Shown here one piece after another: positions 4,865 to 38,170 of a DNA stretch of 64,000 nt. Both the position numbers and the translations under genes were made by a program. The DNA comes from an uncultured Dehalococcoidia bacterium (GTDB taxonomy: Bacteria > Chloroflexota > Dehalococcoidia > GIF9 > UBA5629): positions 39,622-103,621 of the forward strand of contig CALJTV010000036.1 in NCBI GenBank assembly GCA_937975645.1. Direction: 5' to 3'. The notes under the pieces are model-generated. The model did not search any database. It was given only the letters and a program-made list of their open reading frames with translations, and was not told where the DNA came from. How positions within the stretch are numbered: the first letter of the stretch is position 1; each line of letters opens with the position of its first letter.

Positions 4865-4920
4865 CACATACCTACCCAGACGGTATACTGCCTGATTAAA
4901 ACCGCTAAGCGAGGTCTGAG

Positions 4921-7353: not shown

Positions 7354-7399
7354 GACACCCTCCTCTGCAAGCCACAACCTGCGTTCCTGGGTTTCAGGT

Positions 7400-8152: not shown

Positions 8153-8425
8153 GTTGCCCTCCTTAATAGTAGTTTTAGCCGCAAATAGCGAGCCAGTCAT
8201 GTAGTGTGGACGTGCTTTTTTGCTTTGCCTCAGCTAGCCTCGCGGCAAGGCGTATTCTAGCAGAGGCTAAGGACGAAAACAAACCGAGTAGTGCAATAGG
8301 CGCTTGTTCTTTAATTGCCTTGCTAGCCAAAAAGGACTTTCAGGTCTTCACCCTGCACGGCTACAACCGTTGTTTATCGAGATACCTTACCACTGGCTTC
8401 CACCACCCCCTCTATTTTTCTCCAC

Positions 8426-10162
8426 TCATTGTTTGGCTAGTGGGATCACCGGCAGATCAATATATGAAGGATACCCTGACTCATGGAATATGGTCTGCAG
8501 GGCGAGAATACCCCGGGCGTCCTCTCCAGGAGCGTTGCCGGTATTCATATTGCGCTCGAACCGCGGGAAATTGCTGCTGGTGATATCTATGCGCATGCGG
8601 TGTCCCTTACGAAATAGGTTGCTAGTCGAAGCCAAGTCAATCACATACTCATTGATCTCCCCCGGATTTACCAGCTCGGGCTTGAGAATCGACTTCCTGA
8701 ATCTAGCCCGAATACAGCCTTCCGCCACATTTATGGCAAGTCCATTGGGATAGACATCAACTAGCTTCACGAAAAAGTCTGTGTCCTTCGCTGAGGTGGC
8801 AGCGAAAAGGTGAAGCTTTAAAGGGCCGGTTATCTCCATATCTTCTGGCAACTCTGGGGTGGTATAACACAGGACATCGTGCCGTCTTTCGATAATGGAC
8901 TGGTCCTGTGGTCCGGCAGGTTGGTTGAGGTCCGGGTTAAGCCTGCCACCCCGGGTGGGCACGGGGTCGTGCGGATTATACACATAGATATCCGGCGGTT
9001 CCGCCCCTGGTTCGTCCCGGCTGAGCAGACCGTCGCCTGAGGCAGAGTTAGCATGCCCCCGGCTGTGCAGGTAAAATCGCTGCCACTGCGTCTCCGGCAA
9101 GGGCCAGGTGGTGGCGTTCCTCCACCTGTTCAGCCCCATGACAAAATAACGTATAGGTACGAGGTAAGGACTGTCAACCCCCCTTAAATATTTGTCGAAA
9201 AACTGTATATGTCGCTCGGTGGCAAAGGCACCCACCCCAGAAGCATACGCGCCGAAATTGAGTGCACCGATGAAATTGTGGAGCCTTGCCCCGTGGACCC
9301 AGGGTCCCATTAACACATGCTGCCCCTCCCGGGCAATCTGCGAACCACCTTTTTCTCTCATCTTGAGGAAGTTCAAGAAAGTGTGCCCAACGCTCATGTC
9401 ATACCACCCGCAGGAATGCATGATCGGCACCTTCACTTTCTCATAGGGCCAGAATATTTCTTCTTCGGACTTAATCCCTTTCAGGTTATCATAACTCAAG
9501 CGCCTAATAAGCCACTGCTCCATCCCTTCAAACTTAAAATAGGGTATGTCTTTAAGCGGCAAAAAGTTGCACACTTCTTCAAAATTGTTCAGAACGTACC
9601 TGATGTTTTCCACTGCCTTAGAAACGTCTTTCCCCTGCTTCGCCATTTTCGCCAGCATGTCGAAGGCCATGTTGGCGAACCAGCTCATGGTCGTTTCCAG
9701 CTCCTTTATCCCTGCCATTTCAGCCTCACCTAACATACCGGCTCCGATGACATGGGGAGCAATGGCTTTGAGATGGGGCGGGTTCTCTATTGCAGCTTGC
9801 CATTGGTTCCGCGCCAGATATGATGCGCCTGCCATGCCAACGTTCCCGTCACACCAGGGCTCAGCCGCTACAAACTCTACCGTGTCGTACCCGTCCTTCC
9901 CCTCCGGTGCCCCCGGGACGAACTCGCCCTCTGAGGCGAACCTGCCTCTGGTATCTTGGATAACTACAGCATACCCTGCAAAAGCCGCCTCTATAGGAGA
10001 CAGGAAATCGCTGAAGACAGAGTGCGCTTTGTTATACGGTGTCCGTATCACGATAGCTGGATGCTTTTCGCTATCGTCCGGTCGGTAGACATCAGCCCTC
10101 AGCACCACACCGTCCCGCATCCGCATAGGGACATTTCGGTCCACACGAATTGAACTTACCAT
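8426..10162 (-). CDS. CocE/NonD family hydrolase (X-Pro dipeptidyl-peptidase S15-like)
   Basis: 578 aa. 'VPMRMRDGVVLRADVYRPDD...PAIVIRTPYNK' is a typical N-terminus. SD AAGGAGGAG. Confidence 0.85.
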   Translation of the reverse strand: MVSSIRVDRNVPMRMRDGVVLRADVYRPDDSEKHPAIVIRTPYNKAHSVFSDFLSPIEAAFAGYAVVIQDTRGRFASEGEFVPGAPEGKDGYDTVEFVAAEPWCDGNVGMAGASYLARNQWQAAIENPPHLKAIAPHVIGAGMLGEAEMAGIKELETTMSWFANMAFDMLAKMAKQGKDVSKAVENIRYVLNNFEEVCNFLPLKDIPYFKFEGMEQWLIRRLSYDNLKGIKSEEEIFWPYEKVKVPIMHSCGWYDMSVGHTFLNFLKMREKGGSQIAREGQHVLMGPWVHGARLHNFIGALNFGAYASGVGAFATERHIQFFDKYLRGVDSPYLVPIRYFVMGLNRWRNATTWPLPETQWQRFYLHSRGHANSASGDGLLSRDEPGAEPPDIYVYNPHDPVPTRGGRLNPDLNQPAGPQDQSIIERRHDVLCYTTPELPEDMEITGPLKLHLFAATSAKDTDFFVKLVDVYPNGLAINVAEGCIRARFRKSILKPELVNPGEINEYVIDLASTSNLFRKGHRMRIDITSSNFPRFERNMNTGNAPGEDARGILALQTIFHESGYPSYIDLPVIPLAKQ

Positions 10163-10647
10163 TTTCTCCTCCTTAATCTGGTTATCGAACGGAATCTTTT
10201 CGCAACATTATCCCCCAAATGCACCTTTTCATCAACGCTCCTGTACAAGGAGTGTCCCGCCGCGGCTCCCGCACGCACTCAAATCGTCAAATCATTCCTG
10301 TGGACCCACATCAACCCAGGTGGGGTTATCTCCACTTACCAGCTTACCCCAGATACATTCTAGCCCGTTATTTGTCAAGATACACCACATCCCAATTGCA
10401 GCAGCGTGACTGCCACAACAAACACTTTTCGGGAAGCCATACAGGAGGACACGCTCCAAGGCTTTTGCTGGCACACATTGTCCTGTTTCTTCTTCACACC
10501 AACCTTAGTCGAGTAAATTGGCTACGCCAGGCTAAACAGCCAGCTATAGCAACATTGACTGTCCTAAAATTCGGGCGCGGCAGCTAAAAAGGTCTACGAT
10601 CCTGCCTACTTTGTCCAAACTTTCATTAGCCACACGTTGTGCCTCGG

Positions 10648-10677
10648 TTGACATGTCAACAATAGGTCAGGTAAACT
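10648..10677 (+). promoter_or_regulatory. Putative sigma70-type promoter (TTGACA-18-TAAACT) inside a perfect 14-bp palindrome GTTGACATGTCAAC
   Basis: TTGACA lies at 10648-10653 and TAAACT at 10672-10677. The palindrome spans 10647-10660. Confidence 0.4.
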
Positions 10678-10916: not shown

Positions 10917-11186
10917 CTAACATTCCACCATCCTGTACCTGAGCTGTCCTTTTTCGCAATACAGAATAAACTTCACCCTTTTTCCTTGGAGTAAGCGCTC
11001 TTCGCTCTGCCGTCGCAGCTCCCTGAAGTCAGCAGCTTCTAAAAAGTCACGCAGCAGCGACAATTTCCCCTCCAGCGCAGCATCGCTGACACCACCAAGC
11101 AAGCGCCGCGTTACCTCCTCATATTCCTTCCTTGCCACTGTCTCTATACAGTGGAAAAGGTCAGGAAAAAGCTCTACTTCCATCAT
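10917..11186 (-). CDS. Hypothetical small protein, paralog of 17210-17518
   Basis: 89 aa. The C-terminal half aligns by eye with the 102-aa ORF at 17210-17518 (see findings). Confidence 0.55.
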   Translation of the reverse strand: MMEVELFPDLFHCIETVARKEYEEVTRRLLGGVSDAALEGKLSLLRDFLEAADFRELRRQSEERLLQGKRVKFILYCEKGQLRYRMVEC

Positions 11187-12674: not shown

Positions 12675-13290
12675 CCGCGGCGAGGAACTAAAGTTCCTCT
12701 CCCACCTTGATATGATGAAGCTCTGGGAAAGGGCATTGCGCCGCGCCAGAATTCCCCTCGCCTACTCCCAGGGCTATACACCACACCCACAGCTCTCCTT
12801 GGCAGCACCGCTGGCAGTTGGCGTCACCAGCGAGGCAGAGCTCATGGACATCTACCTCTCTCGCTGGGTGACATTGCAGTTCTTCGAGGCGCGGGTGAAA
12901 GAACAACTCCCTCAGGGCATCAGGCTGCTCGAGGTATGGCAGATAAGCCTCAAAATCCCCTCCCTGCAGTCGCAGGTCAAGTTTGCCGAATACAAAGTAG
13001 AAATAGAGACCGACAAGGCGACAGAAGAAATACAGCGGTCTGTGGACTCGCTTCTAAAAACAGACAGGCTCCCCTGGCAACATGTGAGGGATACTGGACC
13101 TAGACATTACGACCTGCGCGCCCTCATCCAAGACCTTTGGCTCATCGAACGCCGCGACTCCCTATGCGTGCTGGGTATGAGGCTGCGTTGCGACGAACAC
13201 GGTTCGGGTAGACCGGAACAGGTGACCAAAGCCTTGGGCTTCCCCGATCCCCCTAAATCCATCCACCGCGTCGCCCTGCTGTTCGGTTAG
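12649..13290 (+). CDS. Radical-SAM-linked protein family (TIGR03936 / DUF2344-like)
   Basis: MQRLRIKFSRGEELKFLSHLDMMKLWERALRRARIPLAYSQGYTPHP... is characteristic. It overlaps the upstream gene by 26 nt. Confidence 0.7.
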   Translation: MQRLRIKFSRGEELKFLSHLDMMKLWERALRRARIPLAYSQGYTPHPQLSLAAPLAVGVTSEAELMDIYLSRWVTLQFFEARVKEQLPQGIRLLEVWQISLKIPSLQSQVKFAEYKVEIETDKATEEIQRSVDSLLKTDRLPWQHVRDTGPRHYDLRALIQDLWLIERRDSLCVLGMRLRCDEHGSGRPEQVTKALGFPDPPKSIHRVALLFG

Positions 13291-13323
13291 AGCTGGGGCC
13301 CTGAGGCAAACTACAGCCTCAAG

Positions 13324-14160
13324 CTAAGCAACTTGGATTACACTACCCACAGTGTTAAACGCAAATCTACCCTCGAACTCTCTTGCCAACACGCTGATAG
13401 CCTGTAAGCCAGTGCAATGACATAGGCTCAACCTCTGCACATCAAGCTCCTTCAAAACAGCTATCGTCTTGCGCAACTGTTCCTCAGAGGCGCCGATGAG
13501 GTGGGAACCGCCGATCACTGTATGTATCCGGGAAACACCGGTAAGCTGCCGTGCGTGGTAAAGCGTATTTATCATGCCCCGATGGGCACAGCCCAGGACT
13601 ACCACCAGCCCCTGCCCCGTCTTAATCACCAGAGCCTGGTCATCGGCAAGCCCGTCCGGCTTCAGCTCGCCATCCCGCTCCACATACAGTATCTCATCAA
13701 CCCGCTCGAAATCAGTGACCATCGGTATCTCACCGGTGGTCAGAATGGAGTCGGTGATAGCCACCGGCTCCCCAGTCAGCCGAAAACTGGCACCTAAGCC
13801 CTCCAGCTCGCGCCTCTGAAACGGTATACCGATGTACCTGGTGCGATGGCTCCCCCTTCCTCGGGCATACTTCGCCTCCCAGATATCAGGGTGGGCTACG
13901 ATTTCCACCTGCTTCTTCATCCGCCGTAATACCTCCCTTAGCCCGCCGGTATGGTCGTAGTGCCCATGGCTGAGCACTATCCTGTCCACTTTCCGTAGGT
14001 CGATGCCCAGACTGTCAGCATTGTGCACCACAGACCTACCGCTCCCAGAATCAAGCAGCACCATGGTACCATCCATCTCCACCAGCATGCTCAGCCCCCA
14101 CTCCCCCAAAAAGTCCCCGAGCATGGCAGTGTTCTCACTCAGTGTAGTTATCCGCAGCAC
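13324..14160 (-). CDS. MBL-fold metallo-hydrolase
   Basis: The 'LSHGHYDHTGG' motif is present. GTG start behind GGAAGGAGA. Confidence 0.75.
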   Translation of the reverse strand: MLRITTLSENTAMLGDFLGEWGLSMLVEMDGTMVLLDSGSGRSVVHNADSLGIDLRKVDRIVLSHGHYDHTGGLREVLRRMKKQVEIVAHPDIWEAKYARGRGSHRTRYIGIPFQRRELEGLGASFRLTGEPVAITDSILTTGEIPMVTDFERVDEILYVERDGELKPDGLADDQALVIKTGQGLVVVLGCAHRGMINTLYHARQLTGVSRIHTVIGGSHLIGASEEQLRKTIAVLKELDVQRLSLCHCTGLQAISVLAREFEGRFAFNTVGSVIQVA

Positions 14161-14171
14161 CGGTCTCCTTC

Positions 14172-14393
14172 CTAGGTATCACTAACTCCGCGTGCACCCT
14201 TGTCAGCGGGATAGAGGACAACGGAGTGCTCCTCCCAGAAATCGATACTCCTCAACCCGCCACGAACATATTTTTCCTCACCCAGAAGGTTTGTCACCCG
14301 GAGCCCACCATCTTCCACCTCTATCCGAATGACCTCAGACATCAATTCTCTCAGTCCACCATCGGATTCAATATAGACCGTAGCCACGCACAT
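14172..14393 (-). CDS. cooT: CooT-family nickel-binding protein
   Basis: 73 aa with an N-terminal 'MC' and a CooT-like beta-barrel sequence (MCVATVYIESDGG...LRVTNLLGEE). Confidence 0.65.
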   Translation of the reverse strand: MCVATVYIESDGGLRELMSEVIRIEVEDGGLRVTNLLGEEKYVRGGLRSIDFWEEHSVVLYPADKGARGVSDT

Positions 14394-14410
14394 GTCTGCA
14401 CCCCCACAGT

Positions 14411-15205
14411 TCAGATTTCAGCCTTTTGAACCAACTTATCAACAATCTCTTTGACGCCCTCTACCGTCACCGTCTCCAAGCTGCGACCGTCCAGACAAGC
14501 CTCAAATATCTCCCTGTCAGTATAAATAGTGCCCATCACATCTATACCCCTTTTCGCCAGTTCGCCTGCCAGCCTATCCGCCATCCTGTTCGAGCTAACC
14601 TTGTTTAGGATAGCCTCGGTGCTCTCCACCCCAGCGCCATCAGCCAGCCCCTTCACCTTCGCTGCCAGCCCCACCGACTCGAACGACGGTTCCACCACCA
14701 CCAGTACTCGGTCGATGCTGGTGTCCACACCCCTGCCAAAATGCTCCACCCCGGCTTCCATATCAACGATGACCACCTCGTCTTTGTCCAGGGAAAGTTT
14801 AGCAAGGAACTCGCGGCTTAACACCCCCATGGGACAGGCGCAGCCCTCCAGCGCCTGCAGGATCTTGCCGATGTTTATCAACCTCAAGCCGTCTCTCTGT
14901 TTGATGTACGCCGGTGGGACATCGCCCACTCGGACTTTCTCCAAGCTGAGTACATCCGCCTTCACCTTCGATTTGCCAGTGGAGACCACCCGCCCCATTT
15001 TGTTCTTGAGCCCCACCTTGCCGCCGACCATCTCCATTATAGGCACCGGCGGTTCAGCAAAGCCCAGCATGCGGAACAGCCCCGAGTTGGACTCGTCTGA
15101 ATCCACCACCAGGACACGGTAGCCACGGTTCTTGAACTCATATGCCAGCAATGTGGCAACGACGCTCTTGCCACACCCTCCTTTGCCGCAGACCGAAATC
15201 TTCAT
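14411..15205 (-). CDS. cooC: CooC-type P-loop NTPase (CO dehydrogenase/Ni maturation factor family)
   Basis: The P-loop is GKGGCGKS. The CxC metal motif is 'EGCACPMG'. Confidence 0.7.
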   Translation of the reverse strand: MKISVCGKGGCGKSVVATLLAYEFKNRGYRVLVVDSDESNSGLFRMLGFAEPPVPIMEMVGGKVGLKNKMGRVVSTGKSKVKADVLSLEKVRVGDVPPAYIKQRDGLRLINIGKILQALEGCACPMGVLSREFLAKLSLDKDEVVIVDMEAGVEHFGRGVDTSIDRVLVVVEPSFESVGLAAKVKGLADGAGVESTEAILNKVSSNRMADRLAGELAKRGIDVMGTIYTDREIFEACLDGRSLETVTVEGVKEIVDKLVQKAEI

Positions 15206-15222
15206 CTCTGCCCCTTCTATTT

Positions 15223-16230
15223 CTAGCTTGCCTTTGCCTTCACCGCCCTAGCGATGGCATCGGCAAAGCCCTGCAGGAAGTCGGCCTGGTAACGCTCCAC
15301 CCTGCCTTCATCACAGAGCTGAGCTAACTCCGGGTCGATAGGTATCTTTGCCAGCAGGGGCGCACCCGCAAGGTTTGCCATCTCCTCAGCGCGACTCTTG
15401 CCAAAAAGCTCAATCTTTTTGCCAGTCTCAGGTAAAACGAAGTAGCTCATGTTCTCCACAACCCCCAGAATAGGTATATGCATCGCCTCCTGTGCCATCT
15501 TAATCGCCTTGCGCACCACCATCGCTGCCAGCTCCTGGGGGCTAAAGACTATGATCACGCCCGATACCGGTAACGACTGCAACACCGTAAGCGGGGCATC
15601 AGCCGTCCCCGGCGGCAGGTCGACTATCAGATAGTCCAGCCGCCCCCAAAGCACGTCCTCCCAGAACTGCGTAATTGCCTTGGCAATAAGGGGACCCCTC
15701 CAGATGACAGCGTCGTCCTCGTGTGGTAACAACAGGTTTACAGACATGATCTCGATCCCCAGGTGGGTGAGCACCGGCAGCAGTCCGGTCTCGCTCCCCT
15801 CAGGGCGCTCGGCGATACCGAACATCTTGGGTATGCTTGGTCCGGTAATATCGGCATCCAGTATACCGACATCGAACCCAGCCCTTGCTAGCGCCACCGC
15901 CGCCAGACTGCTTACCAGCGACTTTCCCACACCACCTTTGCCGCTCATCACCGCTATGACACTGCCGATCTCGTTCAGCTCCTTAGGCCTCATCTCAGTA
16001 AACTCGACGTTCACCTCACCGACATCGGAAAGCTTCCTCAATATCTCCTGCACTTTAGCCCTAAGCCACTCCTGCGACCCATGGTTCAGCGCCGCCGAGG
16101 CAAGAGATATGTCCACACTCCGGTCACTCACCTCGACACGTCTGACGAGATTAAGGCTTGATACGCTCCGCCTCACCCCGGGCACGAGTACTTCTTCAAG
16201 GCTTTTCAATACCTGGTCTCGGTCTATCAA
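15223..16230 (-). CDS. apbC: Mrp/NBP35 (ApbC) family Fe-S cluster carrier ATPase with N-terminal DUF59-like domain
   Basis: 'VMSGKGGVGKS' is present. The TTG start at 16230 follows GGAGG. Confidence 0.85.
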   Translation of the reverse strand: MIDRDQVLKSLEEVLVPGVRRSVSSLNLVRRVEVSDRSVDISLASAALNHGSQEWLRAKVQEILRKLSDVGEVNVEFTEMRPKELNEIGSVIAVMSGKGGVGKSLVSSLAAVALARAGFDVGILDADITGPSIPKMFGIAERPEGSETGLLPVLTHLGIEIMSVNLLLPHEDDAVIWRGPLIAKAITQFWEDVLWGRLDYLIVDLPPGTADAPLTVLQSLPVSGVIIVFSPQELAAMVVRKAIKMAQEAMHIPILGVVENMSYFVLPETGKKIELFGKSRAEEMANLAGAPLLAKIPIDPELAQLCDEGRVERYQADFLQGFADAIARAVKAKAS

Positions 16231-16736
16231 TGCTTACCTCCGTTCACATAAGTCTTGCGGAAATTGTGCGTCCTCCTGCCCTCAAACGCAAGCTGAAATA
16301 GTCCACCATCGCTCACCATACTTATTTTGTCCCGCCCAAGATGGTGGTCGCTCACCTACAATACCCCCAGACCCTTTAGCACTGGATGTAATTCCACCAG
16401 TACATTATACCGCGCTTTCAAATGGTGAATCATGCAATACAGCAGGACCACATCCATGCTCCCAGACACAAGCCTCGTACGGCAATCGGAAGCAATGGTG
16501 TTAACATTCGTCAACTGTTTTCTGAAAACTAAGCTATTCACTGCTTCAATAGCAAGCGGGTTCCTGTCCATGACATGGGCTCTCCCCCACTTGCCCACCA
16601 GCCTCGAGAAGGGCAGGATATAACTTCCCGGTCTGCAGCCAAAGTCAAGCACCTGGAACCCTTCCTTAATCCCCACCCCCTTAAATAGCTCCATCCGCGG
16701 CAACAGGATGCCCCGGAACTTGTAAGCCAAAGACAT
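16227..16736 (-). pseudogene. Class I SAM-dependent methyltransferase interrupted by an in-frame TAG (16356-16358)
   Basis: The 126-aa ORF ends ...LKGLGVL. After the TAG the same frame reads VSDHHLGRDKISMVSDGGLFQLAFEGRRTHNFRKTYVNGGKH. It ends in a TGA that overlaps the TTG start of the next gene (TTGA). Confidence 0.6.
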
Positions 16737-16853
16737 CAGCCCGAAATGCAGTTTTTGATTCAGGTCACGTCACCACCCTGTTTTCTATCGACACTGTTTA
16801 CCGCCTACAGCCCTACTTAGTCAGCCACCACACAGCATTCTGGTCACCCCGCA

Positions 16854-17192
16854 CTAATGGTCGCAGACGTTCTCACCTATTGCAAGTCTACCGTTTAGGT
16901 AGTTTAGGACAGCCTTATCAGGATCGTTCTCCATTACGCCGATGACCACAGTTATGCGTTTCTGTTGGAATAATGCCTGAGCCCTAGGCCCCATACCACC
17001 CGTCAACACCACCGATACCCCTTGCTCTGCCAACCATACTGGAAGGAAGCCGGGCTGATGCCCGGGCGAATCTACAACCTGCTTTTTCTGGATGGTCTTC
17101 GTTGCTACATCCACATCTATCAGGGCAAACTGCTCACAATGCCCAAAATGGGGCGATAACATACCACCACTTAACGGAATAGCAAATCTCAT
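16854..17192 (-). CDS. NifB/NifX family (dinitrogenase FeMo-cofactor-binding domain-like) protein
   Basis: MRFAIPLSGGMLSPHFGHCEQFALIDVD... is typical of this family. Confidence 0.8.
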   Translation of the reverse strand: MRFAIPLSGGMLSPHFGHCEQFALIDVDVATKTIQKKQVVDSPGHQPGFLPVWLAEQGVSVVLTGGMGPRAQALFQQKRITVVIGVMENDPDKAVLNYLNGRLAIGENVCDH

Positions 17193-17209
17193 CTGTGTAC
17201 CTCCTATGT

Positions 17210-17518
17210 TTACTCCTTTACCCTAAGCCTGTAAACCGGTCTCCCTTCTTCTAGGTAAATATTCACACTCACTTGTTTCCCTTCGGCAAGATAACGTTCA
17301 GCCTCGTCGCGCAACTTCTGTGACTCCGGCGACTTTAGAAAGGTGACTAGCGCCTCGAACCTCTCCTCTAGTTCCCGATTTCCCGCGCCGCCTTGTCTCA
17401 AGAGCTCCAACAGGCAATTGTTCATCTCCTGCTCAGCTAGGCACTTTATACATTTGCCCGGAACATCAGTTGTAGAATATCTCGGGCTAAGGTCTATCAC
17501 TTCCACTGCGGAATTCAC
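17210..17518 (-). CDS. Hypothetical protein, paralog of 10917-11186
   Basis: 102 aa. Its GTG start overlaps the upstream stop (GTGA). Confidence 0.55.
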   Translation of the reverse strand: MNSAVEVIDLSPRYSTTDVPGKCIKCLAEQEMNNCLLELLRQGGAGNRELEERFEALVTFLKSPESQKLRDEAERYLAEGKQVSVNIYLEEGRPVYRLRVKE

Positions 17519-17760
17519 CTCCTTCGGTTCTGGCTACACCCATCTCCCAAGGAGCAGGGTGGTGTATCGCAGCGCTCTGTACTGCCACAACAAGTTGTGC
17601 CCGCTGCCCTTGATCCCGCCTTCACCATATAAGACGCCGAAACCAGCTTCTCCGTCTTCTGGCTACCGCAATCGGGACAGCACACCACTTTACCAGTATC
17701 ACGCATCAGAGACTCAAATATCCTGCCACAATTCTGACATCTAAAGTCGTAGATCGGCAT
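17515..17760 (-). CDS. FmdB-family zinc-ribbon protein
   Basis: MPIYDFRCQNCGRIFE...CPDCGS, with a C-terminal CCG...C..PPC tail. SD AAGGAGG. Confidence 0.8.
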   Translation of the reverse strand: MPIYDFRCQNCGRIFESLMRDTGKVVCCPDCGSQKTEKLVSASYMVKAGSRAAGTTCCGSTERCDTPPCSLGDGCSQNRRR

Positions 17761-18637
17761 GTTTCAAGCCTCCTTGGTATCTATCTAGAGATTCAAAAAT
17801 CCGCTGCCACAGGGACTCTATCTGTCTGACAGTACCATTAGAACAGTTTTCCACCAGCGGAATTCCCCTGGCAATTGATTCGGTAAACGCATCGTCGAAG
17901 GGGATTTTGCCAGCAATAGTCAGCTTCTGACTGTAACAGTACTCCTCAATCTTGCGGCTGTTCTCTTCATTAACATCATATTTGTTGATACACACCAGAG
18001 GGGAGACGCCGAAATGCCGACACACCCCCAGTACCCTCTCCAAATCGTGTATCCCAGAGAGTGTCGGCTCGGTAACCACAAGCGCCAGGTTTGCCCCAGA
18101 CAATGAGGAAATGACCGGACAACCGATCCCAGGGGGACCATCGCTGATTATCAAGTCAAACCTGTCTTTTTGAGCTATCTGCTTTGCCTGCTGCCTGATC
18201 AAAGCTACCAATTTTCCTGAATTCTGCTGCGCTATTCCCAGCCTGGCATGCACCAAAGGACCATAACGGGTGTCCGAAACGAACCAGTGCCCGGAAAGTT
18301 TGTCCTGCATTGTGATCGCTCCCACAGGACAGACATGAAAGCAAAAGCCACAACCCTCACAGGATTTAGCGTCAACTCTAAAATCACGGATAGCCTGGAA
18401 GCGACACAGTTGCTGGCACAAGCCGCACTGCGTGCACTTGTCACCTTCAATGATGGCAATTTGTCCCGTCCAGAACTCGTGGCTTTCGCGTCTGGTCGGC
18501 TGCAGGACAAGGTGCAGGTCGGCAGCATCTACATCGCAATCGCAAAGCACTTCGCTGCTAGCTAGAGCAGCAAAAGAGGCAACAAGGCTAGTCTTGCCAG
18601 TGCCCCCCTTACCGCTTAATACGACCAGTTCCTTCAT
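17741..18637 (-). CDS. MinD/ParA-superfamily P-loop ATPase with inserted 2x[4Fe-4S] ferredoxin domain
   Basis: GKGGTGKTS is present, together with CTQCGLCQQLC and CEGCGFCFHVCP. The start is set at ATG 18637, with GGAGA 8 nt upstream. Confidence 0.8.
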   Translation of the reverse strand: MKELVVLSGKGGTGKTSLVASFAALASSEVLCDCDVDAADLHLVLQPTRRESHEFWTGQIAIIEGDKCTQCGLCQQLCRFQAIRDFRVDAKSCEGCGFCFHVCPVGAITMQDKLSGHWFVSDTRYGPLVHARLGIAQQNSGKLVALIRQQAKQIAQKDRFDLIISDGPPGIGCPVISSLSGANLALVVTEPTLSGIHDLERVLGVCRHFGVSPLVCINKYDVNEENSRKIEEYCYSQKLTIAGKIPFDDAFTESIARGIPLVENCSNGTVRQIESLWQRIFESLDRYQGGLKHADLRL

Positions 18638-19475
18638 GTACCATATCTCCAATCTTATCGAAGAGCTCTATAAAATGCCGCCTCCACTCAGGTAGACCGA
18701 CAACCAGAGGGATGCCCCTGGAGTACAGCCGGGCGATTTCCATGTCGAGCGGAATGGTGAGCAAGATTGGAATACCCTCTTTCTCACAATAGTCCCTGAC
18801 CAGACCATCTTTCATCCCGGCACGGTTGATGACCACACCGCAGGGCACGTCAAACTCCCGCACCATCGACACAGCCAGCACAAGGTCGTTGAGCCCAAAT
18901 AGGGTGGGCTCGGTCACCAACAGACAGAAGTCGCTGCCCTTAACCGCCTCCACCACCGGACAGGATGTCCCCGGCGATACGTCCACGATGACAACTCCAT
19001 CCCGGTTGGCAAACTGCTTCACCTTTCTGATCACCGGCAGTGCCAGCGGCTCACCAACATTGAGTCTGCCGTGAACAAACTCCACCCCGTCTGAATTGCC
19101 CCACTCCACGACGCCGACCTCCCTCCCCACCTCGCTTATCGCCCCCTCTGGGCAAAGGTAACTACAAGCCCCGCAACCATGACATAATTCCGGAAACGTC
19201 AACACATAGCCCGGGACCACCGCAATGGCATGATAGGCACAAACCTGAGCACATTTGCCACAGTAGTTACACTTACCCTTTTCTATCTGGGGAACAGGCA
19301 TACACACGGGTTCTCTCCCGCTTATAGCTGGGTTCAGTAGCAAATGCGCATTGGGCTCCTCGACATCACAGTCAAGAAGCTGCACCCTTGCTTTCTCCTT
19401 CAAGGAGAGGGCAAGACTAGTAGCCATCAAAGTTTTGCCCGTACCCCCCTTGCCACTGGCCACAGCTATAATCAT
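18609..19475 (-). CDS. MinD/ParA-superfamily P-loop ATPase with inserted 2x[4Fe-4S] ferredoxin domain
   Basis: MIIAVASGKGGTGKT is present, together with CNYCGKCAQVC and CHGCGACSYLCP. ATG 19475 overlaps the upstream TGA (ATGA). Confidence 0.8.
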   Translation of the reverse strand: MIIAVASGKGGTGKTLMATSLALSLKEKARVQLLDCDVEEPNAHLLLNPAISGREPVCMPVPQIEKGKCNYCGKCAQVCAYHAIAVVPGYVLTFPELCHGCGACSYLCPEGAISEVGREVGVVEWGNSDGVEFVHGRLNVGEPLALPVIRKVKQFANRDGVVIVDVSPGTSCPVVEAVKGSDFCLLVTEPTLFGLNDLVLAVSMVREFDVPCGVVINRAGMKDGLVRDYCEKEGIPILLTIPLDMEIARLYSRGIPLVVGLPEWRRHFIELFDKIGDMVHEGTGRIKR

Positions 19476-19684
19476 GCTCGGACCATTCTGGTGCCACACT
19501 TGGGGCAGGTCACCTGATGACACGGCGTGCCTGCCTGGTGCGGCACTTTATGACCACAACTGGGACAAACACACTCCCCACCGGGACCAGCACCGGGGCA
19601 GTTGCCACGCTCCCTTTTACCACATCCTCTTCCCGTGCCGGAACCGCTCCCCCATGGCGGTCCCATGCTGTCTCCCCTAGGCAT
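19472..19684 (-). CDS. Small Gly/Arg-rich protein with C-terminal Cys4 zinc ribbon (DUF5320-like N-terminus)
   Basis: MPRGDSMGPPWGSGSGTGRGCGKRERGNCPGAGPGGECVCPSCGHKVPHQAGTPCHQVTCPKCGTRMVRA. The start at ATG 19684 follows GAGGAGGTG. Confidence 0.65.
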   Translation of the reverse strand: MPRGDSMGPPWGSGSGTGRGCGKRERGNCPGAGPGGECVCPSCGHKVPHQAGTPCHQVTCPKCGTRMVRA

Positions 19685-20255
19685 CACTACACCTCCTCTG
19701 TGTCTTATCTCGCTCTTTGCCTTCGCCACCGCTTTCAAGCGTCTTTACCCTCGCTTGGATCTCCTCAAGCTGCTTCGCCAGCAGCTGCGACTGCGCTTTC
19801 AGTGCCGAAAGCTCCTGCTGCAGGCTTTCTGGATTCAACGTCGAACCAGTTGTCCGGCTGCCCCGAGCTACCCATCCCCTACCAGGCATGCTGCCGGTGC
19901 CGAAGTGTGGAAGCACATTGGGCTGTGAACTTGCCTGATGTTTCCCTCTCTTGTAGTCCTGAATAGCATCCCTTATTTTACCGGAGACACCCGTTACCAC
20001 TTCGATACCAGATGAGGACAGCACCTGATAGGCGTTAGGTCCACAGTTCCCGGTGAGCACTGCCTTCACACCCTTCCCGGCAATCATCTGTGCCGCTGCA
20101 ATCCCGGCTCCGCCAGAAGCAGCCGAGCTGGAATTAGCCACAGCCTCGAACTGCAGTGTCTCTAGGTCGACGATGACAAAATATTGGCACCGCCCAAAAC
20201 GAGGGTCCACCTCGCTGTCGAGGCTAGCATCCACAGCCGAAACGGCAACTTTCAT
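19677..20255 (-). CDS. NifB/NifX-family domain fused to a Gly/Arg segment and C-terminal coiled coil
   Basis: The N-terminus is MKVAVSAVDASLDSEVDPRFGRCQYFVIVD... The C-terminus contains LQQELSALKAQSQLLAKQLEEIQARVKTLE. The junction with the upstream gene is TAATG. Confidence 0.75.
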   Translation of the reverse strand: MKVAVSAVDASLDSEVDPRFGRCQYFVIVDLETLQFEAVANSSSAASGGAGIAAAQMIAGKGVKAVLTGNCGPNAYQVLSSSGIEVVTGVSGKIRDAIQDYKRGKHQASSQPNVLPHFGTGSMPGRGWVARGSRTTGSTLNPESLQQELSALKAQSQLLAKQLEEIQARVKTLESGGEGKERDKTQRRCSDA

Positions 20256-20587
20256 TACTTCAACTCCTGGCTCAATTCCTTTACCCTGGCTTCAATCCGC
20301 TCCAGTTCCTCCCTTATCGCCTCTGCCTGCTCCTTTAGATAATTGAGCTCCTCTTCCTTGCTCATCGGCGGAGTGAAAGGGGCATAGCTAGGAAAGGGAC
20401 TGCGGGCATAGCGGGGGGAATAACCAGGCGGATAAGCCCACGGGGCTATACCTCCCCAGCCGAGGAAATAACCGCACCTGGGCAGACCACCCCTGCCTAC
20501 CCCCACAAAGGGCCACGGAGGTGAGGCACCACGGAAGCCAAACCCACAGCCCCTACCGAAGCCAGCACCTCGACCAAATCCATACAT
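20255..20587 (-). CDS. DUF5320-like protein (Gly/Arg/aromatic-rich N-terminus + coiled coil)
   Basis: MYGFGRGAGFGRGCGFGFRG...EEELNYLKEQAEAIREELERIEARVKEL. SD AAGGAGGTGA. Confidence 0.7.
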   Translation of the reverse strand: MYGFGRGAGFGRGCGFGFRGASPPWPFVGVGRGGLPRCGYFLGWGGIAPWAYPPGYSPRYARSPFPSYAPFTPPMSKEEELNYLKEQAEAIREELERIEARVKELSQELK

Positions 20588-20660
20588 ACTATCACCTCCT
20601 TTCCATAAACTTGTGCTTGCTTGTTCCCTAGCTAAATTTCAGCCGAAGTTCTTTGTCTTG

Positions 20661-21167
20661 TTACCATCGCCCCCTACCGCGACACCTCCCCCAACCACCA
20701 CCTACTCTCAGTACCCCCGGCGGCAACGGAATGATACCCGACGTATGGCAGGTAGGGCACACCTGCTGAGGCGCCACCACCAGAGATCCAAACGGTACCT
20801 GCCACTCATGCCCGTTGCCGCAACGGAAGCGCCGTATAATTAGCTCGAAGTTGCCCCCCTCAACCCTTATCGCCTTGCCATTAACCAGCGCATCAGCCAC
20901 CTTGCGCCTCGCCGAATTTAAAATGCGCTGGAAAGTGGGACGAGAGATATTCATCTGCTGAGCACACTCCTCCTGCTCCAGACCTTCTATATCTTTGAGC
21001 CGCAGGGCTTCCAGCTCCTCCACCACCAGATGAACCTCCTCCAGCATGTACAAAGGCACCGCCGTGGGTTTGAAATAGCCCACCCGCGGCAACAAGCCAA
21101 CCTTTCGCCACTTCACCGGCCTCCCCACCAGCCTTTTGTTCTCTTCCATCTCAGAAGTTTTTGGCAT
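20661..21167 (-). CDS. DUF134 (UPF0251) family putative DNA-binding protein with C-terminal Cys4 and GRG tail
   Basis: GRPVKWRKVGLLPRVGYFKP, an HTH-like 'QEECAQQMNISRPTFQRILNSARRKVA', then CGNGH...CPTCH and RVGGGWGRCRGRGRW. Confidence 0.75.
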   Translation of the reverse strand: MPKTSEMEENKRLVGRPVKWRKVGLLPRVGYFKPTAVPLYMLEEVHLVVEELEALRLKDIEGLEQEECAQQMNISRPTFQRILNSARRKVADALVNGKAIRVEGGNFELIIRRFRCGNGHEWQVPFGSLVVAPQQVCPTCHTSGIIPLPPGVLRVGGGWGRCRGRGRW

Positions 21168-21179
21168 ATGCTCATAATT

Positions 21180-21208
21180 ATTATGCCAAATTGGGGCTGG
21201 AGAGTCAA
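21180..21208 (-). promoter_or_regulatory. Putative promoter TTGACT-17-CATAAT ending 12 nt upstream of the DUF134 ATG (near-leaderless)
   Basis: On the minus strand, TTGACT lies at 21208-21203 and CATAAT at 21185-21180. The inverted repeat GGCATA/TATGCC (21163-21168 and 21182-21187) brackets the -10 box and the start codon. Confidence 0.45.
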
Positions 21209-21337
21209 GAACCGATAGGGGAGAGTGGACAGCTCGTGCCAGTCCGGTGACGGCTATGCTCGCTGGCTCAAGGAGGGGTACACCGGGCGTACCTTACCAC
21301 GGATACACCCTATCCATTTGTATGCGCCTGCTGGGCT

Positions 21338-23200
21338 CTATTGGAACTTCACCGAGTTAATAATGTCGTACTTCTGGTTCGGGGTAGTGAAGGGGAAATA
21401 AGCCGGCACGGTAAAAACCTCGATGATGACCCACTTACCGTTTCTGACCAGCCCGATAATAAGACTATCGTACTTGCCGGCTGCCCCGGTATAGGTCACC
21501 TCAGCCTGAGTTACCCTAGTGCCACCGATGGTGACCTCGCTCGCGCTAAACGTGTCGATGGTCTTACTGCCGTCGGCTGCCAGGTGCCCAGCGAATGCTG
21601 CTTTCAAATCAGCGCCTGCCGACCGGTCAAGGACGATAACTCTGACCGCAGGCACATTGTAGTTGCCGGCACCGACGCGCCAGACGACATTGGGGCCCAG
21701 GTCGCCAGCTTTTGGCACCCAGCTCCCGGGATACTGCAGGGAGAAATTATAGTCAGAATTGGTATAAGTAGCCCATTCAGCCGCTCCACTGGCAGCAGGC
21801 TGCGGTCTGTATAGACCTGTTCTTACCTCCAGAGGCTTTCCGATCCTGAGATACCGGTCAGTGGCGGCGTCATATGGTGGCCACTCCACAAGCCCTGGGA
21901 CATTGGGGTTCCCTGTCCTGGCAAATTGCACCCACATAGAGACCATTGCCTTAGCCACCTCCACATCCACAACGCACATGTCCTGCCTTTTAGTCAGGTC
22001 GGAAAACAGGTAAGTTACGCTGAGACAGTGGGTACCACCTCCAACACCGCAGGGACCATGGTCAAAGACCCAAACGTATACAGGTGACGAGACCGAACTC
22101 ATAGCCGAAGCAATGGCTTTATCGAAGTACTGGTTCCAGGAACCGGCAAGGTCGTTGCTTCCGCTACCTATCATCAGGGGTACATCGTGTTGTTTGCCTG
22201 ACTGAAAAATGTTGAGCGGGTAGTCCGGCAAAAACCATCCGTCTACATTTGGTAATTGCAAATCTGTCCCCGTGGTGCTGACAGGCACTGCTGCCACGAT
22301 CTTATCGGCACTTAGCGCGCGCAGCGCGCCGAGCAAATCAGAGGCACCGGAAACCCCCAGTCTAGCCACCAGCTCCTCTCCCCGCCTCTCCATCTCCGCC
22401 AGTGGCGGTGTGCGGCTGTTGCCATACATACCAGCATCGGCAATGGCTTTATGGAAGAGTCCTTTGCCAAAAGGCGATGCCATGAGAAACAGGACCGATT
22501 CCCCACCCGAGGAACAACCATATATAGTCACGTTCTTAGGGTCCCCACCAAAGGCAGAAATATTTCTTTGCACCCACTGAAGAGCAGCTACCTGGTCCAT
22601 AAGACCGTAATTACCAGAAACCCCCTTCTCTGATTCCTTATCAAGCAATGGGTGTGCGAAGAAGCCCAGTCCACCTAACCTATAAGCAATCGATACTGCC
22701 ACCACGTTGTTCTCCCGGGCAAAGTAAGACAGGTCGATCCGTGAAGAACCTATGACCATAGCGCCACCATGGATGTAGACGAACACCGGCAGGCGGTCAG
22801 CCGTGCTTCTGGCGGGAGTGAACACATTAAGATAAAGACAGTCTTCGCTCTGCTCCGCCTCCTGAGTCGTCAGACGCGTCCTCTGCTGGGGACAGATCGG
22901 CGCATATTCCCGGCACTCAAGGACACCTTGCCAGGGATTGACAGGTTGAGGTGGTCTCCACCTGAAATCGCCCACAGGTGGCGCTGCGAACGGTATGCCC
23001 CTGTATACCCGCACCTCCTTGCCTGCTTCCCCCACGACCACACCGGAAATGAGTCCAGCATCGGTCTTGATGGGGTCGGTTAATGGAACCGCAGTAGCCT
23101 GCTTTTCCCCACAGGAAACGGTTATCGCGCTCACCAGTACCAGCAGGGCAAGGACTGCTAACAGTCTGGAGGACAAACGGCTTCTCATGTCACTCTCCAA
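21338..23200 (-). CDS. Secreted/lipoprotein carboxylesterase type B family with extra C-terminal domain
   Basis: 'YRGIPFAAPPVGDFRWRPPQP' and the G-x-S-x-G-like 'GCSSGG' are present, with a signal peptide plus 'VSC'. The C-terminal domain of about 140 aa lies outside the esterase fold. Confidence 0.8.
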   Translation of the reverse strand: MESDMRSRLSSRLLAVLALLVLVSAITVSCGEKQATAVPLTDPIKTDAGLISGVVVGEAGKEVRVYRGIPFAAPPVGDFRWRPPQPVNPWQGVLECREYAPICPQQRTRLTTQEAEQSEDCLYLNVFTPARSTADRLPVFVYIHGGAMVIGSSRIDLSYFARENNVVAVSIAYRLGGLGFFAHPLLDKESEKGVSGNYGLMDQVAALQWVQRNISAFGGDPKNVTIYGCSSGGESVLFLMASPFGKGLFHKAIADAGMYGNSRTPPLAEMERRGEELVARLGVSGASDLLGALRALSADKIVAAVPVSTTGTDLQLPNVDGWFLPDYPLNIFQSGKQHDVPLMIGSGSNDLAGSWNQYFDKAIASAMSSVSSPVYVWVFDHGPCGVGGGTHCLSVTYLFSDLTKRQDMCVVDVEVAKAMVSMWVQFARTGNPNVPGLVEWPPYDAATDRYLRIGKPLEVRTGLYRPQPAASGAAEWATYTNSDYNFSLQYPGSWVPKAGDLGPNVVWRVGAGNYNVPAVRVIVLDRSAGADLKAAFAGHLAADGSKTIDTFSASEVTIGGTRVTQAEVTYTGAAGKYDSLIIGLVRNGKWVIIEVFTVPAYFPFTTPNQKYDIINSVKFQ

Positions 23201-26176: not shown

Positions 26177-27433
26177 ATGCACACCAAAAACATAGCCGTT
26201 CCCCGCCAGATCTGGCATGGGGAGAGTGAGCGTTACCTGGACTTTCCCGAGCCCTGGGAAATTTTCCTATGTCTGATGCAGGGACATAACATCCCCAGGG
26301 TCTCAGCGGACGACATCAGGTCTGCCCTAAAAACGCCAACTGGCAGTGCCCCCTTAACAGAACTGGCTAAAGGTAAGAACGAAATAGCCATAATATTCGA
26401 TGATATCTCCCGTCCCACCAGGGTCGCCGAAATTGTGCCGCACATCCTTGATGAACTCCACGCTGCTGGCATTCCGGACAGGGCGGTCAGGTTCATCTGC
26501 GCTACCGGCTGCCACGGCGCCCACACCTATCAGGACTTCCAGAAAAAGCTCGGCGCTGAGGTAATGGACAACTTCCCCGTCTACAACCACAACGTCTATG
26601 AAAACTGCACCTATGTGGGGGAGACGTCCCAGGGAACAAAGCTATCGGTCAACTCCGAGGTCATTGGCTGTGACTTGAAGATCGCCATCGGCTCGGTCGT
26701 TCCCCATCCCCAGACCGGATTCGGCGGGGGTGGCAAGATCGTCCTCCCAGGCATCGCCTCGATAGACTCCATCGAGGCTTTCCACCGCCTTGAATTCAAA
26801 GCGAGAGACGAGGGTAAATGGGGCATAGTCGGTCCGGGGAACTATGTTGACAACCCCATGGTCAAAGATTTCACCGAAGCTGCCAGGCTTGCCGGGCTAG
26901 ATTTCAAAATCGATACCCTAGTAAATGGCAAAGGTGAACCATGTGCCATCTTTGCCGGCGCCCCCGAGACAGTATACTACCAGGCAGTGAGCCTTGCCGC
27001 GAGTCACTACGCCACCAAGAGCATCCCCGATGCCGACATCGTTGTAGTCAACACCTATGCCAAGGGCAACGAAGCAATCGTTGGTCTGCTCATCGGCATA
27101 CCGATGCTGATGGCTAAGGGTGGTAACCTGGTGCTCATTATGGATTGTCCCACGGGCCAGGTGGTACACTACCTCCTTGGTAGCTTCGGCACCAGAACGA
27201 GGGGGCGCCTCTTCAATGCCGTGAGCTATAAGCTCCCCTGGCTTAAGAGAGTGATCGTCCTTTGCCCGCAGTTCGAAAAGTCCACCAAAGACTGGCTTGC
27301 CATCCCTGATGCCGTCTGGGTGAAGACCTGGGAGGAGGTTGTAGAAATACTGCGTGGCGACTTTCCTGGCAAAGCGAAAGTGGCTATCGTTCCCGATGGC
27401 ACTATACAGTACCTGGCTCCTCAGCAGACTTGA
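26177..27433 (+). CDS. LarA-like (lactate racemase N-terminal domain / DUF2088) protein
   Basis: 418 aa. 'IIFDDISRPT', 'ATGCHGAHT' and 'VVPHPQTGFGGGGKIVLPG' resemble the LarA nickel-pincer-cofactor binding region. Confidence 0.7.
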   Translation: MHTKNIAVPRQIWHGESERYLDFPEPWEIFLCLMQGHNIPRVSADDIRSALKTPTGSAPLTELAKGKNEIAIIFDDISRPTRVAEIVPHILDELHAAGIPDRAVRFICATGCHGAHTYQDFQKKLGAEVMDNFPVYNHNVYENCTYVGETSQGTKLSVNSEVIGCDLKIAIGSVVPHPQTGFGGGGKIVLPGIASIDSIEAFHRLEFKARDEGKWGIVGPGNYVDNPMVKDFTEAARLAGLDFKIDTLVNGKGEPCAIFAGAPETVYYQAVSLAASHYATKSIPDADIVVVNTYAKGNEAIVGLLIGIPMLMAKGGNLVLIMDCPTGQVVHYLLGSFGTRTRGRLFNAVSYKLPWLKRVIVLCPQFEKSTKDWLAIPDAVWVKTWEEVVEILRGDFPGKAKVAIVPDGTIQYLAPQQT

Positions 27434-28044: not shown

Positions 28045-28059
28045 ACCGGGGATAGAAAA

Positions 28060-38118: not shown

Positions 38119-38170
38119 CGACTAACCTCCGCCCCGAGATTTCGCCCTTCCACCATCCTAAACCAGCAAC

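Follow-up and report, generated by a model that had tools for sequence, protein, structure and literature searches.

A stretch of 64,000 nucleotides (nt) from an uncultured Dehalococcoidia bacterium (contig CALJTV010000036.1, positions 39,622 to 103,621; this whole stretch is called the window below) carries on its minus strand a compact cluster of genes for paired MinD-type ATPases with ferredoxin domains, NifX-fold proteins, an Mrp-type ATPase and homologues of CooC and CooT, proteins otherwise known from the nickel-containing carbon monoxide dehydrogenase (CODH) system. A first-pass annotation, made from the sequence alone, had described 13 translationally coupled genes of metallocentre-assembly character, without a client enzyme and without an assigned function or name for the combined module. 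The last of these statements has to be revised: the core of the cluster maps onto the orange protein (ORP) cluster of Desulfovibrio vulgaris (DVU2103-2109), and we regard it as very probably of the ORP type.

Gene content and layout of the operon

Between 21167 and 14172 on the minus strand, 13 open reading frames (ORFs) follow one another in tight packing. Their coordinates and the Pfam and NCBIfam profile searches of the window ORFs, from which all domain labels used here derive, bear out the places and domains first given for them. A 14th co-oriented gene, for a protein of the metallo-beta-lactamase (MBL) fold, has to be added to that count; it starts 11 nt past the CooT gene and is syntenic in relatives, and the next gene beyond it is convergent. 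The operon thus comprises 14 genes, running from about 21208 down to 13324 with the MBL gene as its last member.

The gene junctions were derived from the ORF coordinates, using conserved internal starts, and in this way the four short junctions and the 8-29 nt overlaps noted earlier were all recovered. The genes for the DUF5320 protein and the tailed NifX protein meet in a TAATG at 20255. An ATGA lies at 19472-19475, if the first MinD-ferredoxin ATPase starts at MIIAVASGKGG, and GTGA and TTGA junctions are found at 17515-17518 and 16227-16230, respectively. Other neighbours overlap by 8, 20 or 29 nt or are separated by gaps of 17, 17, 17 and 11 nt. Upstream of the first gene, a sigma70-like promoter candidate (TTGACT-17-CATAAT with an extended TG; 21180-21208, minus strand) ends 13 nt before the DUF134 ATG; with 10 of 12 matches it is the best match between 13000 and 21600, and such matches are no commoner in this region than in shuffled sequence. 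A scan for terminators gave nothing convincing inside the operon, and no sigma54 motif (TGGCAC-N5-TTGC, at most one mismatch) was found between 13.3 and 21.4 kb. Equally, an Rfam scan of 13000-21700 returned no riboswitch or other RNA, so that no NiCo or molybdenum cofactor (Moco) clue came from this side.

For comparison with relatives we collected the neighbourhoods of homologues of the first MinD-ferredoxin ATPase together with 80 loci of the CooC-like gene, and compared them with the window proteins by tblastn; individual loci are cited by number (L001, L003 and so on).

Regulator, DUF5320 protein, tailed NifX protein and Cys4 protein

The operon opens with a DUF134 helix-turn-helix regulator (20661-21167, minus strand; Pfam DUF134, 1e-24), which also matches a sigma70 region-4-like helix-turn-helix in Pfam. 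Its C-terminus carries a CxxxH...CxxC element followed by a Gly/Arg/Trp tail, and both the RRFRCxNGHEW...CPxC element and the GGWGRCRGRGRW tail are kept in orthologues. The second gene (20255-20587, minus strand; Pfam DUF5320, 4e-8) encodes a DUF5320 protein in which a Gly/Pro/Arg/aromatic N-terminal region of 74 amino acids (18 G, 13 P, 7 R/K, 0 D/E, 17 F/W/Y; isoelectric point, pI, 10.3) is followed by an acidic coiled coil. The motif GFGFRGxSPPWPxxGxGRGGLPRCGYF of this protein is conserved in orthologues.

The third gene (19677-20255, minus strand; Nitro_FeMo-Co, 1e-25) specifies an Orp8-like NifX-fold protein of the ORP/MTH1175/IssA type with a Gly/Arg linker and a DUF5320 coiled-coil tail, the latter matched by Pfam over residues 117-173. 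Its best matches in the PDB are 2WFB, the orange protein of D. gigas (E 1.9e-19 over residues 2-113), and 1EO1, MTH1175 (3.2e-19). The linker of about 40 amino acids has a pI of 11.7, with 7 G and 2 aromatic residues, and the coiled coil comes after it. That the DUF5320 region is common to the second and third proteins suggests that the two pair through this coiled coil.

A small protein of 70 amino acids follows (19472-19684, minus strand), with a Gly/Arg-rich MPRGDxxGPPWG N-terminus and a metal-binding CxCPxCG...PC...CPxCG ribbon. Its ORF would reach 88 amino acids if extended to 19738, yet the start is conserved at MPRGD, and since this start and all of the cysteines are invariant in 11 orthologues, the gene probably begins at MPRGD (19684). 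No Pfam family reached threshold for this Cys4 protein. Gly/Arg-rich, acid-poor segments are found in four products of the operon: the DUF5320 protein, the Orp8-like protein, the 70-residue Cys4 protein and the DUF134 regulator.

Paired MinD-ferredoxin ATPases, FmdB-type protein and AF_2379-family protein

Two MinD-type P-loop ATPases with an inserted 2x[4Fe-4S] ferredoxin domain, both Orp3/Orp4-like, are encoded side by side at 18609-19475 (copy 1; CbiA/ParA plus two Fer4) and 17741-18637 (copy 2; CbiA/ParA plus CxxCxxCxxxC motifs), again on the minus strand. Each has two CxxCxxCxxxC motifs (CNYCGKCAQVC and CHGCGACSYLCP; CTQCGLCQQLC and CEGCGFCFHVCP). The two copies are paralogues with 34% identity and are adjacent in all relatives compared. 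At least 8000 homologues of copy 1 were found, the named ones from Dehalococcoidia/Chloroflexota.

Next comes an FmdB-type zinc-ribbon protein of 81 amino acids (17515-17760, minus strand; Zn_ribbon_8 3e-14, TIGR02605 5e-15) with 9-10 conserved cysteines and a C-terminal TCCGRxERC(D/E)xPPC that is invariant in orthologues. It is a candidate counterpart of Orp5. The gene after it (17210-17518, minus strand) had been listed as a 102-residue unknown. Gene and length stand, and the protein can now be placed in a family, its orthologues being annotated as AF_2379 (PF27306) in precomputed Pfam matches and sharing an invariant PGKC(I/V)KCLA...NCL. Its AlphaFold model (predicted local distance difference test score 86.6) shows three helices and a beta-hairpin, and a fold search with this model gave no PDB match at E<=0.001. 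An 89-residue AF_2379-like paralogue without CxxC is also present in the window at 10917-11186 (minus strand), between genes for a CNNM transporter and a PepX peptidase. Such a paralogue likewise occurs a few kb past the MBL gene in L086 (17257-17526), where it is flanked by the same two genes, and in L006 (10652-10873).

Separate MrpORP modules and a probable methyltransferase pseudogene

The two domains that D. vulgaris joins in MrpORP (Orp9) are encoded here by two genes. The first is a Di-Nase-type NifX protein of 112 amino acids (16854-17192, minus strand; Pfam Nitro_FeMo-Co 1e-21), equivalent to the C-terminal domain of MrpORP. It matches the NCBIfam model NF041136 (MrpORP) over profile positions 265-365 (118.6 bits, E 3.6e-34), and its SPHFGHCE near the start and terminal CDH, motifs named for MrpORP (PMC6345978), are invariant in 11 orthologues. 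The second is a DUF59-Mrp/NBP35-type ATPase (15223-16230, minus strand; ParA/NUBPL plus FeS_assembly_P 2e-88), equivalent to the N-terminal module, which matches the same model over positions 2-245 (314 bits, E 1.3e-93; ApbC 221 bits). The fusion itself is absent: both scores fall below the equivalog cut-off of 450 bits, and the Di-Nase gene lies upstream of the Mrp gene with a methyltransferase gene between them.

The window Mrp resembles the Mrp/NBP35/ApbC carriers in its ParA/NUBPL fold (PF10609, 296.6 bits), its Walker A motif (SGKGGVGKS) and its DUF59 N-terminal domain, as in ApbC. It differs from them at the decisive point. Where homologues have ENMSxxxCPxCG, it reads ENMSYFVLPETGKK (VLPETGKK for CPxCG), and the CxxC for a bridging [4Fe-4S] cluster is missing in 12/12 Dehalococcoidia-type loci (the window and 11 others); the single cysteine of the protein lies outside the CxxC position. 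Desulfobacterales and Anaerolineales homologues keep the motif, and CPxCG is present in the Mrp of L026, L053, L056 and L082. The defining cluster-binding feature of Mrp/NBP35 carriers is thus lacking, and the earlier remark on Mrp/ApbC as a carrier of Fe-S clusters cannot be extended to this protein as it stands. A correlation between the presence of the CooC-like gene and the Cys-less Mrp was considered and dropped: L001 and L005 have the Cys-less Mrp and no CooC-like gene within 10 kb.

Between the two modules lies a gene for an S-adenosylmethionine (SAM)-dependent methyltransferase (16227-16736, minus strand; Methyltransf_31/11/25 in Pfam), probably a pseudogene. The in-frame TAG that had been reported for it lies at 16356-16358 and is best read as a point mutation in a decaying gene rather than as a recoding signal. 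In the intact, 67%-identical orthologue of L003 the codon is TCG (Ser), and SAM motif I has changed in the window from DFGCGPG to DFGCRPG (GGA to AGA, Gly to Arg). Pyrrolysine or stop-codon recoding is ruled out by these two changes, and the gene is probably a recent pseudogene or the product of a sequencing error. The 117-nt gap before it (16737-16853), between the Di-Nase stop and the methyltransferase ATG, is accounted for by an 81-nt insertion relative to L003, the closest orthologous locus.

Conservation of the gene order

Loci found through homologues of MinD-ferredoxin copy 1, with 69-86% identity and named as Dehalococcoidia/Chloroflexota, have the same gene order. It reads DUF134, DUF5320, NifX with tail, Cys4, two MinD-ferredoxin ATPases, FmdB, AF_2379 and NifX in its 5' part, and (methyltransferase), Mrp, CooC-like, (CooT), (NifU) and MBL in its 3' part, genes in brackets being those not always present. 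The full order, including both halves, recurs in at least 10 Dehalococcoidia loci. L006 (77% identity in the CooC-like protein) has all of the window genes in identical order, and in L003, L004, L007, L008, L024, L025, L034, L050 and L086 nearly the whole set is present. Synteny in L086 extends into the flanking chromosome, from the LarA/LUD genes to the PepX/ECH genes. Because the order recurs in independent contigs at 50-89% amino-acid identity, the arrangement goes beyond chance. The block had been proposed to form one functional unit, an idea that would have failed if its two halves were never found together; the neighbourhood comparison speaks for the unit, since the halves are syntenic in 10 loci.

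The cluster is not invariant. L001 and L005 have cores without CooC-like and CooT genes, and L003, L007 and L086 have the CooC-like gene without CooT. A NifU_N scaffold protein and a ferredoxin of 100 amino acids are encoded in L003, L006 and L007 (NifU_N also in L086), between CooC-like/CooT and the MBL gene. This place corresponds to 14160-14172 in the window, which has neither gene. Together with the broken methyltransferase, this suggests that the operon copy in the window is undergoing gene loss. A Pyr_redox_2 flavoprotein gene, radical SAM genes and DUF364 are variable among the relatives. In L086, the DUF5320, NifX and MinD-ferredoxin genes (7075-9687 and 10314-10651) are called as many short fragments, which are probably assembly frameshift errors rather than real decay.

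Several relatives carry fused versions of these genes. In L034, an ORF of 334 amino acids (4148-5152) runs in frame from DUF134, with Cys element and Gly/Arg tail both kept, into a NifX domain of the ORP type. This is a Rosetta-stone fusion or else a read-through created by the assembly. In L076, a NifX domain is fused to a 2x[4Fe-4S] ferredoxin (6825-7754, 309 amino acids), and the two MinD-ferredoxin genes form a single ORF of 632 amino acids (7718-9616), downstream of a Fur gene and directly upstream of CooC-like/CooT. These fusions (DUF134-NifX, NifX-ferredoxin and MinD-ferredoxin with MinD-ferredoxin) support a functional coupling of the proteins concerned.

The CooC-like ATPase, CooT and their genomic context

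The 3' end of the operon encodes a CooC-family ATPase (14411-15205, minus strand; CbiA), a CooT homologue (14172-14393, minus strand; PF10133 3e-15, 56.7 bits against a cut-off of 27) and the MBL-fold metallo-hydrolase of COG1237 type (13324-14160, minus strand; Lactamase_B 2e-13). The best PDB matches of the last, 2P4Z (5.5e-42) and TM1679, are both uncharacterised, and its gene is syntenic in L003, L006, L007, L034, L050 and L086. No specific NCBIfam model was matched by any of four proteins: CooC-like, CooT, MBL and methyltransferase. The CooC-like protein belongs to a clade of at least 120 clusters with at least 56% identity to it, labelled by JGI as 'CO dehydrogenase maturation factor', in which CGKGGxGKS, LEGCACPMG and VDMEAGVEHFGRG are invariant.

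The first-pass annotation had connected the pair to CODH, and the cluster could be a composite in which an ORP block stands beside a displaced, dedicated Ni maturase pair serving a CODH/acetyl-CoA synthase (ACS) elsewhere in the genome. The proteins themselves lend this some weight. The best solved relative of the CooC-like ATPase is CooC1 of Carboxydothermus (3KJE, E 3.4e-17), whose CxC aligns with EGCACPMG of the window protein; CooT begins with Met-Cys, and this Cys2, which in R. rubrum CooT is the Ni ligand, does not vary among 15 orthologues. As in the CooC/CooT(/CooJ) system of Ni-CODH in R. rubrum and C. hydrogenoformans, an ATPase with deviant Walker A motif and CxC is thus encoded next to a CooT with Cys2. 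Unlike that system, the window has no cooS, cooF or cooJ, the pair is embedded in an ORP/Fe-S/thiol-redox neighbourhood, and the CooC-like clade has an extra conserved cysteine directly before the P-loop (CGKGG).

Genomic context points away from CODH. The 80 loci of the CooC-like gene come from Dehalococcoidia, Desulfobacterales, Anaerolineae, Armatimonadia and Planctomycetota. Only two of them, L032 and L053, have a Prismane/CODH gene within 10 kb on either side, there beside CooC-like/CooT and in favour of a displaced maturase; the other 78 have none, so that the clade is almost never beside CODH. CooT is directly downstream of the CooC-like gene in 33 of 75 loci with enough flank, and an ORP-core gene is near it in 21/80, or in 16/42 when only loci with 6 kb or more of upstream sequence are counted. 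Its recurrent neighbours in the 80 loci are NifU_N (22), a 248-residue methyltransferase (21), which makes methyltransferases a regular partner of this gene in relatives, radical SAM proteins (20), thioredoxin (19), Fur (17), Pyr_redox_2 (15), thioredoxin reductase (14) and a small ferredoxin (13). A second phylum shows the association with MinD-ferredoxin, NifX, Mrp, NifU and Fur as well: in the Desulfobacterales, L026 has the order methyltransferase, Mrp, two MinD-ferredoxin genes, NifU, Grx, Fur and CooC-like, and L076 has Fur, NifX/ferredoxin, the fused MinD-ferredoxin pair, CooC-like and CooT. These neighbour counts and Desulfobacterales loci show the CooC-like/CooT pair to be a variable companion of Fe-S/redox genes that nonetheless keeps recurring, not a stray maturase for CODH.

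Position within the operon argues in the same direction. The pair begins 17 nt past Mrp, its place is kept in L004, L006 and L008, and the CooC-like gene alone is kept in L003, L007 and L086. CooT is also rare in true CODH operons, at 16% in clade E and 6% in clade F according to the literature. On the other side, the absence of both genes from the otherwise similar L001 and L005, and the nearness by locus tag of the CODH gene DVU_2098 to orp DVU2103-2109 in D. vulgaris, are what a displaced maturase would lead one to expect. On balance, we consider a displaced maturase pair rather unlikely. By locus-tag numbering, DVU_2098 is a few genes from the D. vulgaris orp genes; CooC and ORP genes may be old neighbours even where CODH is present.

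Comparison with the ORP system

In D. vulgaris, the ORP complex contains Orp3 and Orp4 with two [4Fe-4S] ferredoxin motifs each, Orp5 as a small [2Fe-2S] protein, and Orp8, which is homologous to the orange protein, to which a [S2MoS2CuS2MoS2] cluster is bound non-covalently (PMC6345978). Orp9, or MrpORP, is an Mrp P-loop domain fused to a NifX-like 'Di-Nase' with CxHFGHCE and CDH motifs, and it hands a [4Fe-4S] cluster to Orp3/Orp4 (PMC6345978). The Desulfovibrio ORP proteins form one complex, and their genes are expressed only at very low redox potential, about -425 mV.

Like DVU2103-2109, the window cluster encodes a pair of MinD ATPases, both of which carry two [4Fe-4S] ferredoxin motifs, together with a NifX-fold protein of ORP type, the Mrp module, a Di-Nase module with HFGHCE/CDH and a small Cys-rich protein, and it likewise has an anaerobe-specific distribution. 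It differs in being one unidirectional operon rather than two divergent ones, and in having a DUF134 regulator with a sigma70-like promoter candidate and no OrpR-type gene, where Desulfovibrio has OrpR/sigma54, a system reported as limited to Deltaproteobacteria. Further differences are the split MrpORP with its Di-Nase gene upstream and an Mrp that lacks CxxC and has the DUF59 N-terminal domain, the DUF5320 tail on the ORP homologue, and the extra genes for DUF5320, Cys4, AF_2379, methyltransferase, CooC-like, CooT and MBL proteins.

Absence of a client enzyme, which the first-pass annotation had recorded for the 64 kb, was confirmed. Among the 40 ORFs of at least 150 amino acids scanned across the rest of the window, none encodes CODH/ACS, nitrogenase or hydrogenase, and tblastn with a CooS protein gave no match in the 64 kb. 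For an ORP-type cluster no nitrogenase or CODH client is expected, because in D. vulgaris the Fe-S subunits Orp3/Orp4 are themselves the acceptors of MrpORP. The NifX-like proteins had been taken for carriers of nitrogenase-type cofactor that lacked their enzyme. They do share the Pfam Nitro_FeMo-Co domain with NifX, NafY and the C-terminal part of NifB, but the window has no nif genes, both proteins match only MrpORP in NCBIfam, and their closest solved structures are of the ORP, MTH1175, PH0822 and TM1290 type rather than NafY. They are instead of ORP/MTH1175/IssA type and MrpORP Di-Nase type, respectively, and a nitrogenase-type cofactor pathway is ruled out by the lack of nif genes in the window and of any match to NifX/NafY models.

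A possible role in metal-sulfide storage and trafficking

Whether such a cluster serves in the storage or trafficking of metal-sulfide species appears evenly balanced. Taken as one statement, that the cluster is the Dehalococcoidia version of the anaerobe-specific ORP metal-sulfur system and has such a storage/trafficking role, we find the proposal somewhat more probable than its denial. ORP and IssA both bind anionic metal-sulfide species non-covalently, and by analogy the NifX-fold proteins of the window would carry such species, Fe-S or other, with no covalent ligand. Electrostatic stabilisation of this cargo could come from the Gly/Arg/aromatic segments, as the IssA tail provides it for thioferrate, and the common DUF5320 coiled coil would tether the DUF5320 protein to the Orp8-like protein. 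The MinD-ferredoxin heterodimer may use ATP hydrolysis and incoming electrons to load or release the cargo, with the Di-Nase protein and the Cys-less Mrp ATPase maturing or feeding the complex. CooC-like and CooT would then serve the ORP-type system, not CODH, by providing it with a metal ion or with a site (2 x CxC) that bridges a dimer. DUF134 would replace sigma54/OrpR as regulator and may sense the same ligand through its Cys/Gly/Arg tail.

Several points weigh against this proposal. For Desulfovibrio itself, the physiological role is not settled and one in cell division has been proposed; as late as 2021 the cellular role of ORP systems was described as 'still unclear'. On isolation, the orange protein carried a Mo-Cu cluster and not an Fe-S polymer. 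The Mrp of the window lacks CxxC, so that the transfer step from Mrp to Orp3/4 may not apply. Features for Ni binding are kept in the CxC of the CooC-like protein and Cys2 of CooT, and a CODH/ACS may be encoded outside the 64-kb window. The likeness to IssA is one of domain family and amino-acid composition. Lastly, it is from gene spacing that we infer co-transcription of the 14 genes (about 21208 to 13324, minus strand) as a single operon.

A bolder version would make the cluster a bacterial ATP- and redox-driven machine for iron-sulfide storage and mobilisation, an 'IssX'-type counterpart of archaeal IssA; we think this unlikely. IssA of Pyrococcus furiosus is a thioferrate iron-sulfur storage protein, and its thioferrate-binding tail of 70 amino acids contains 15 G, 11 P, 7 cationic and 14 aromatic residues and one cysteine, at a pI of 10.7. 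MTH1175 served as the template for modelling the globular domain of IssA, and Gly-rich, high-pI tails are also noted for an uncharacterised clade of non-thermophiles named 'IssX' (PMC5524996). The window cluster compares well with IssA in composition, a point in favour of the storage/trafficking proposal above. It has an IPR003731/NifX-type globular domain related to MTH1175 and an acid-free, cationic segment of about 70 amino acids that is rich in Gly, Pro and aromatic residues, with a pI above 10 and a single conserved cysteine. Unlike in IssA, this composition resides mainly on the separate DUF5320 protein and not on the NifX protein's own tail, and the N-terminal region of the DUF5320 protein is conserved in sequence, not merely in composition, with a coiled coil after it. 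In such a machine, DUF5320-type Gly/Arg/aromatic segments would wrap anionic Fe-S polymers or clusters held on the ORP-type NifX domains, the Orp3/Orp4-like pair would load or unload the cargo, and DUF134 would sense the cargo through its own tail. CooC-like/CooT would act as a CODH-independent delivery unit for metal or clusters, compensating for the Mrp without CxxC.

Cell division and molybdenum-copper chemistry as alternatives

The cluster might alternatively be a MinD-like positioning or cell-division system of strict anaerobes, as was first proposed for the Desulfovibrio ORP system, with its metal centres serving only as redox sensors. The ATPases are homologous to MinD, and the literature describes morphological defects on loss of orp expression, a polar location of MrpORP and C-terminal amphipathic helices in Orp3/Orp4. 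Nevertheless, 9 of the 14 genes encode predicted metal- or cluster-binding proteins or carriers, the genes that keep appearing nearby are those for NifU, Fur, thioredoxin, thioredoxin reductase and radical SAM proteins rather than for cell division, and the division role is itself worded in the literature as a hypothesis ('directly or indirectly'). This explanation seems to us improbable. Handling of Mo/W-Cu sulfide, in the form of thiomolybdate or thiotungstate detoxification or trafficking, is more doubtful still: it draws on the non-covalent Mo-Cu cluster of ORP, on 2WFB as the best PDB relative of the tailed NifX protein and on the molybdopterin oxidoreductase genes just upstream of the cluster in L001 and L005, yet MTH1175 scores as well as ORP, the recurrent neighbours Fur and NifU are iron-related, and the ORF scan of the window revealed no Mo/W transporter and no Moco genes.

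Other genes of the window

The plus strand carries at 26177-30219 a LarA-like gene (Lar_N) and, directly behind it, LUD-domain genes of LutC-like and LutB-like type. The best NCBIfam matches of the LarA-like protein are the Ni-pincer malate and lactate racemases, all far below their cut-offs, and the window showed no LarB/C/E genes. In L086, too, the LarA-like gene and the LUD-domain gene next to it adjoin the cluster. At 36535-39949 (minus strand), two adjacent genes encode proteins of 527 and 571 amino acids, each with a C-terminal AhpC/TSA-redoxin domain; the first has in addition an N-terminal double zinc ribbon and a purple-acid-phosphatase-N-like region, an unusual architecture for peroxiredoxin-fold proteins. 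Three ORFs, all on the minus strand, have no Pfam match at E<=1e-6: 2073-3371 (432 amino acids), which sits between genes for an HpaB-like flavin monooxygenase and an FMN reductase, 5829-6431 (200 amino acids) and 45319-46011 (230 amino acids).

Implications

The core of the cluster is a known and named system, and its Dehalococcoidia architecture was not found described in the literature searched. The same holds for DUF134 with a cargo-like tail, the Cys-less Mrp, the IssA-like DUF5320 segments and the CODH-independent CooC/CooT clade. A 2026 review of Fe-S biogenesis treats IssA for archaea only and ORP not at all. As a warning for annotation, the labels 'NifX', 'CooC', 'CooT' and 'Mrp' need not mean nitrogenase, CODH or canonical carrier chemistry here.

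Judged by the MinD-ferredoxin homologues, ORP-type clusters are very widespread in strict anaerobes, and their function is unexplained more than 15 years after their description. The occurrence in one operon of an ORP core, IssA-like cationic segments, DUF134 and CooC/CooT with no CODH nearby leads to testable hypotheses for several DUF families. Were the cluster indeed an IssX-type machine, ORP/COG1149 proteins, DUF134 and DUF5320 would be given a function together. The finding bears on how Fe-S species are stored and trafficked in anaerobes that live on sulfide-rich iron.

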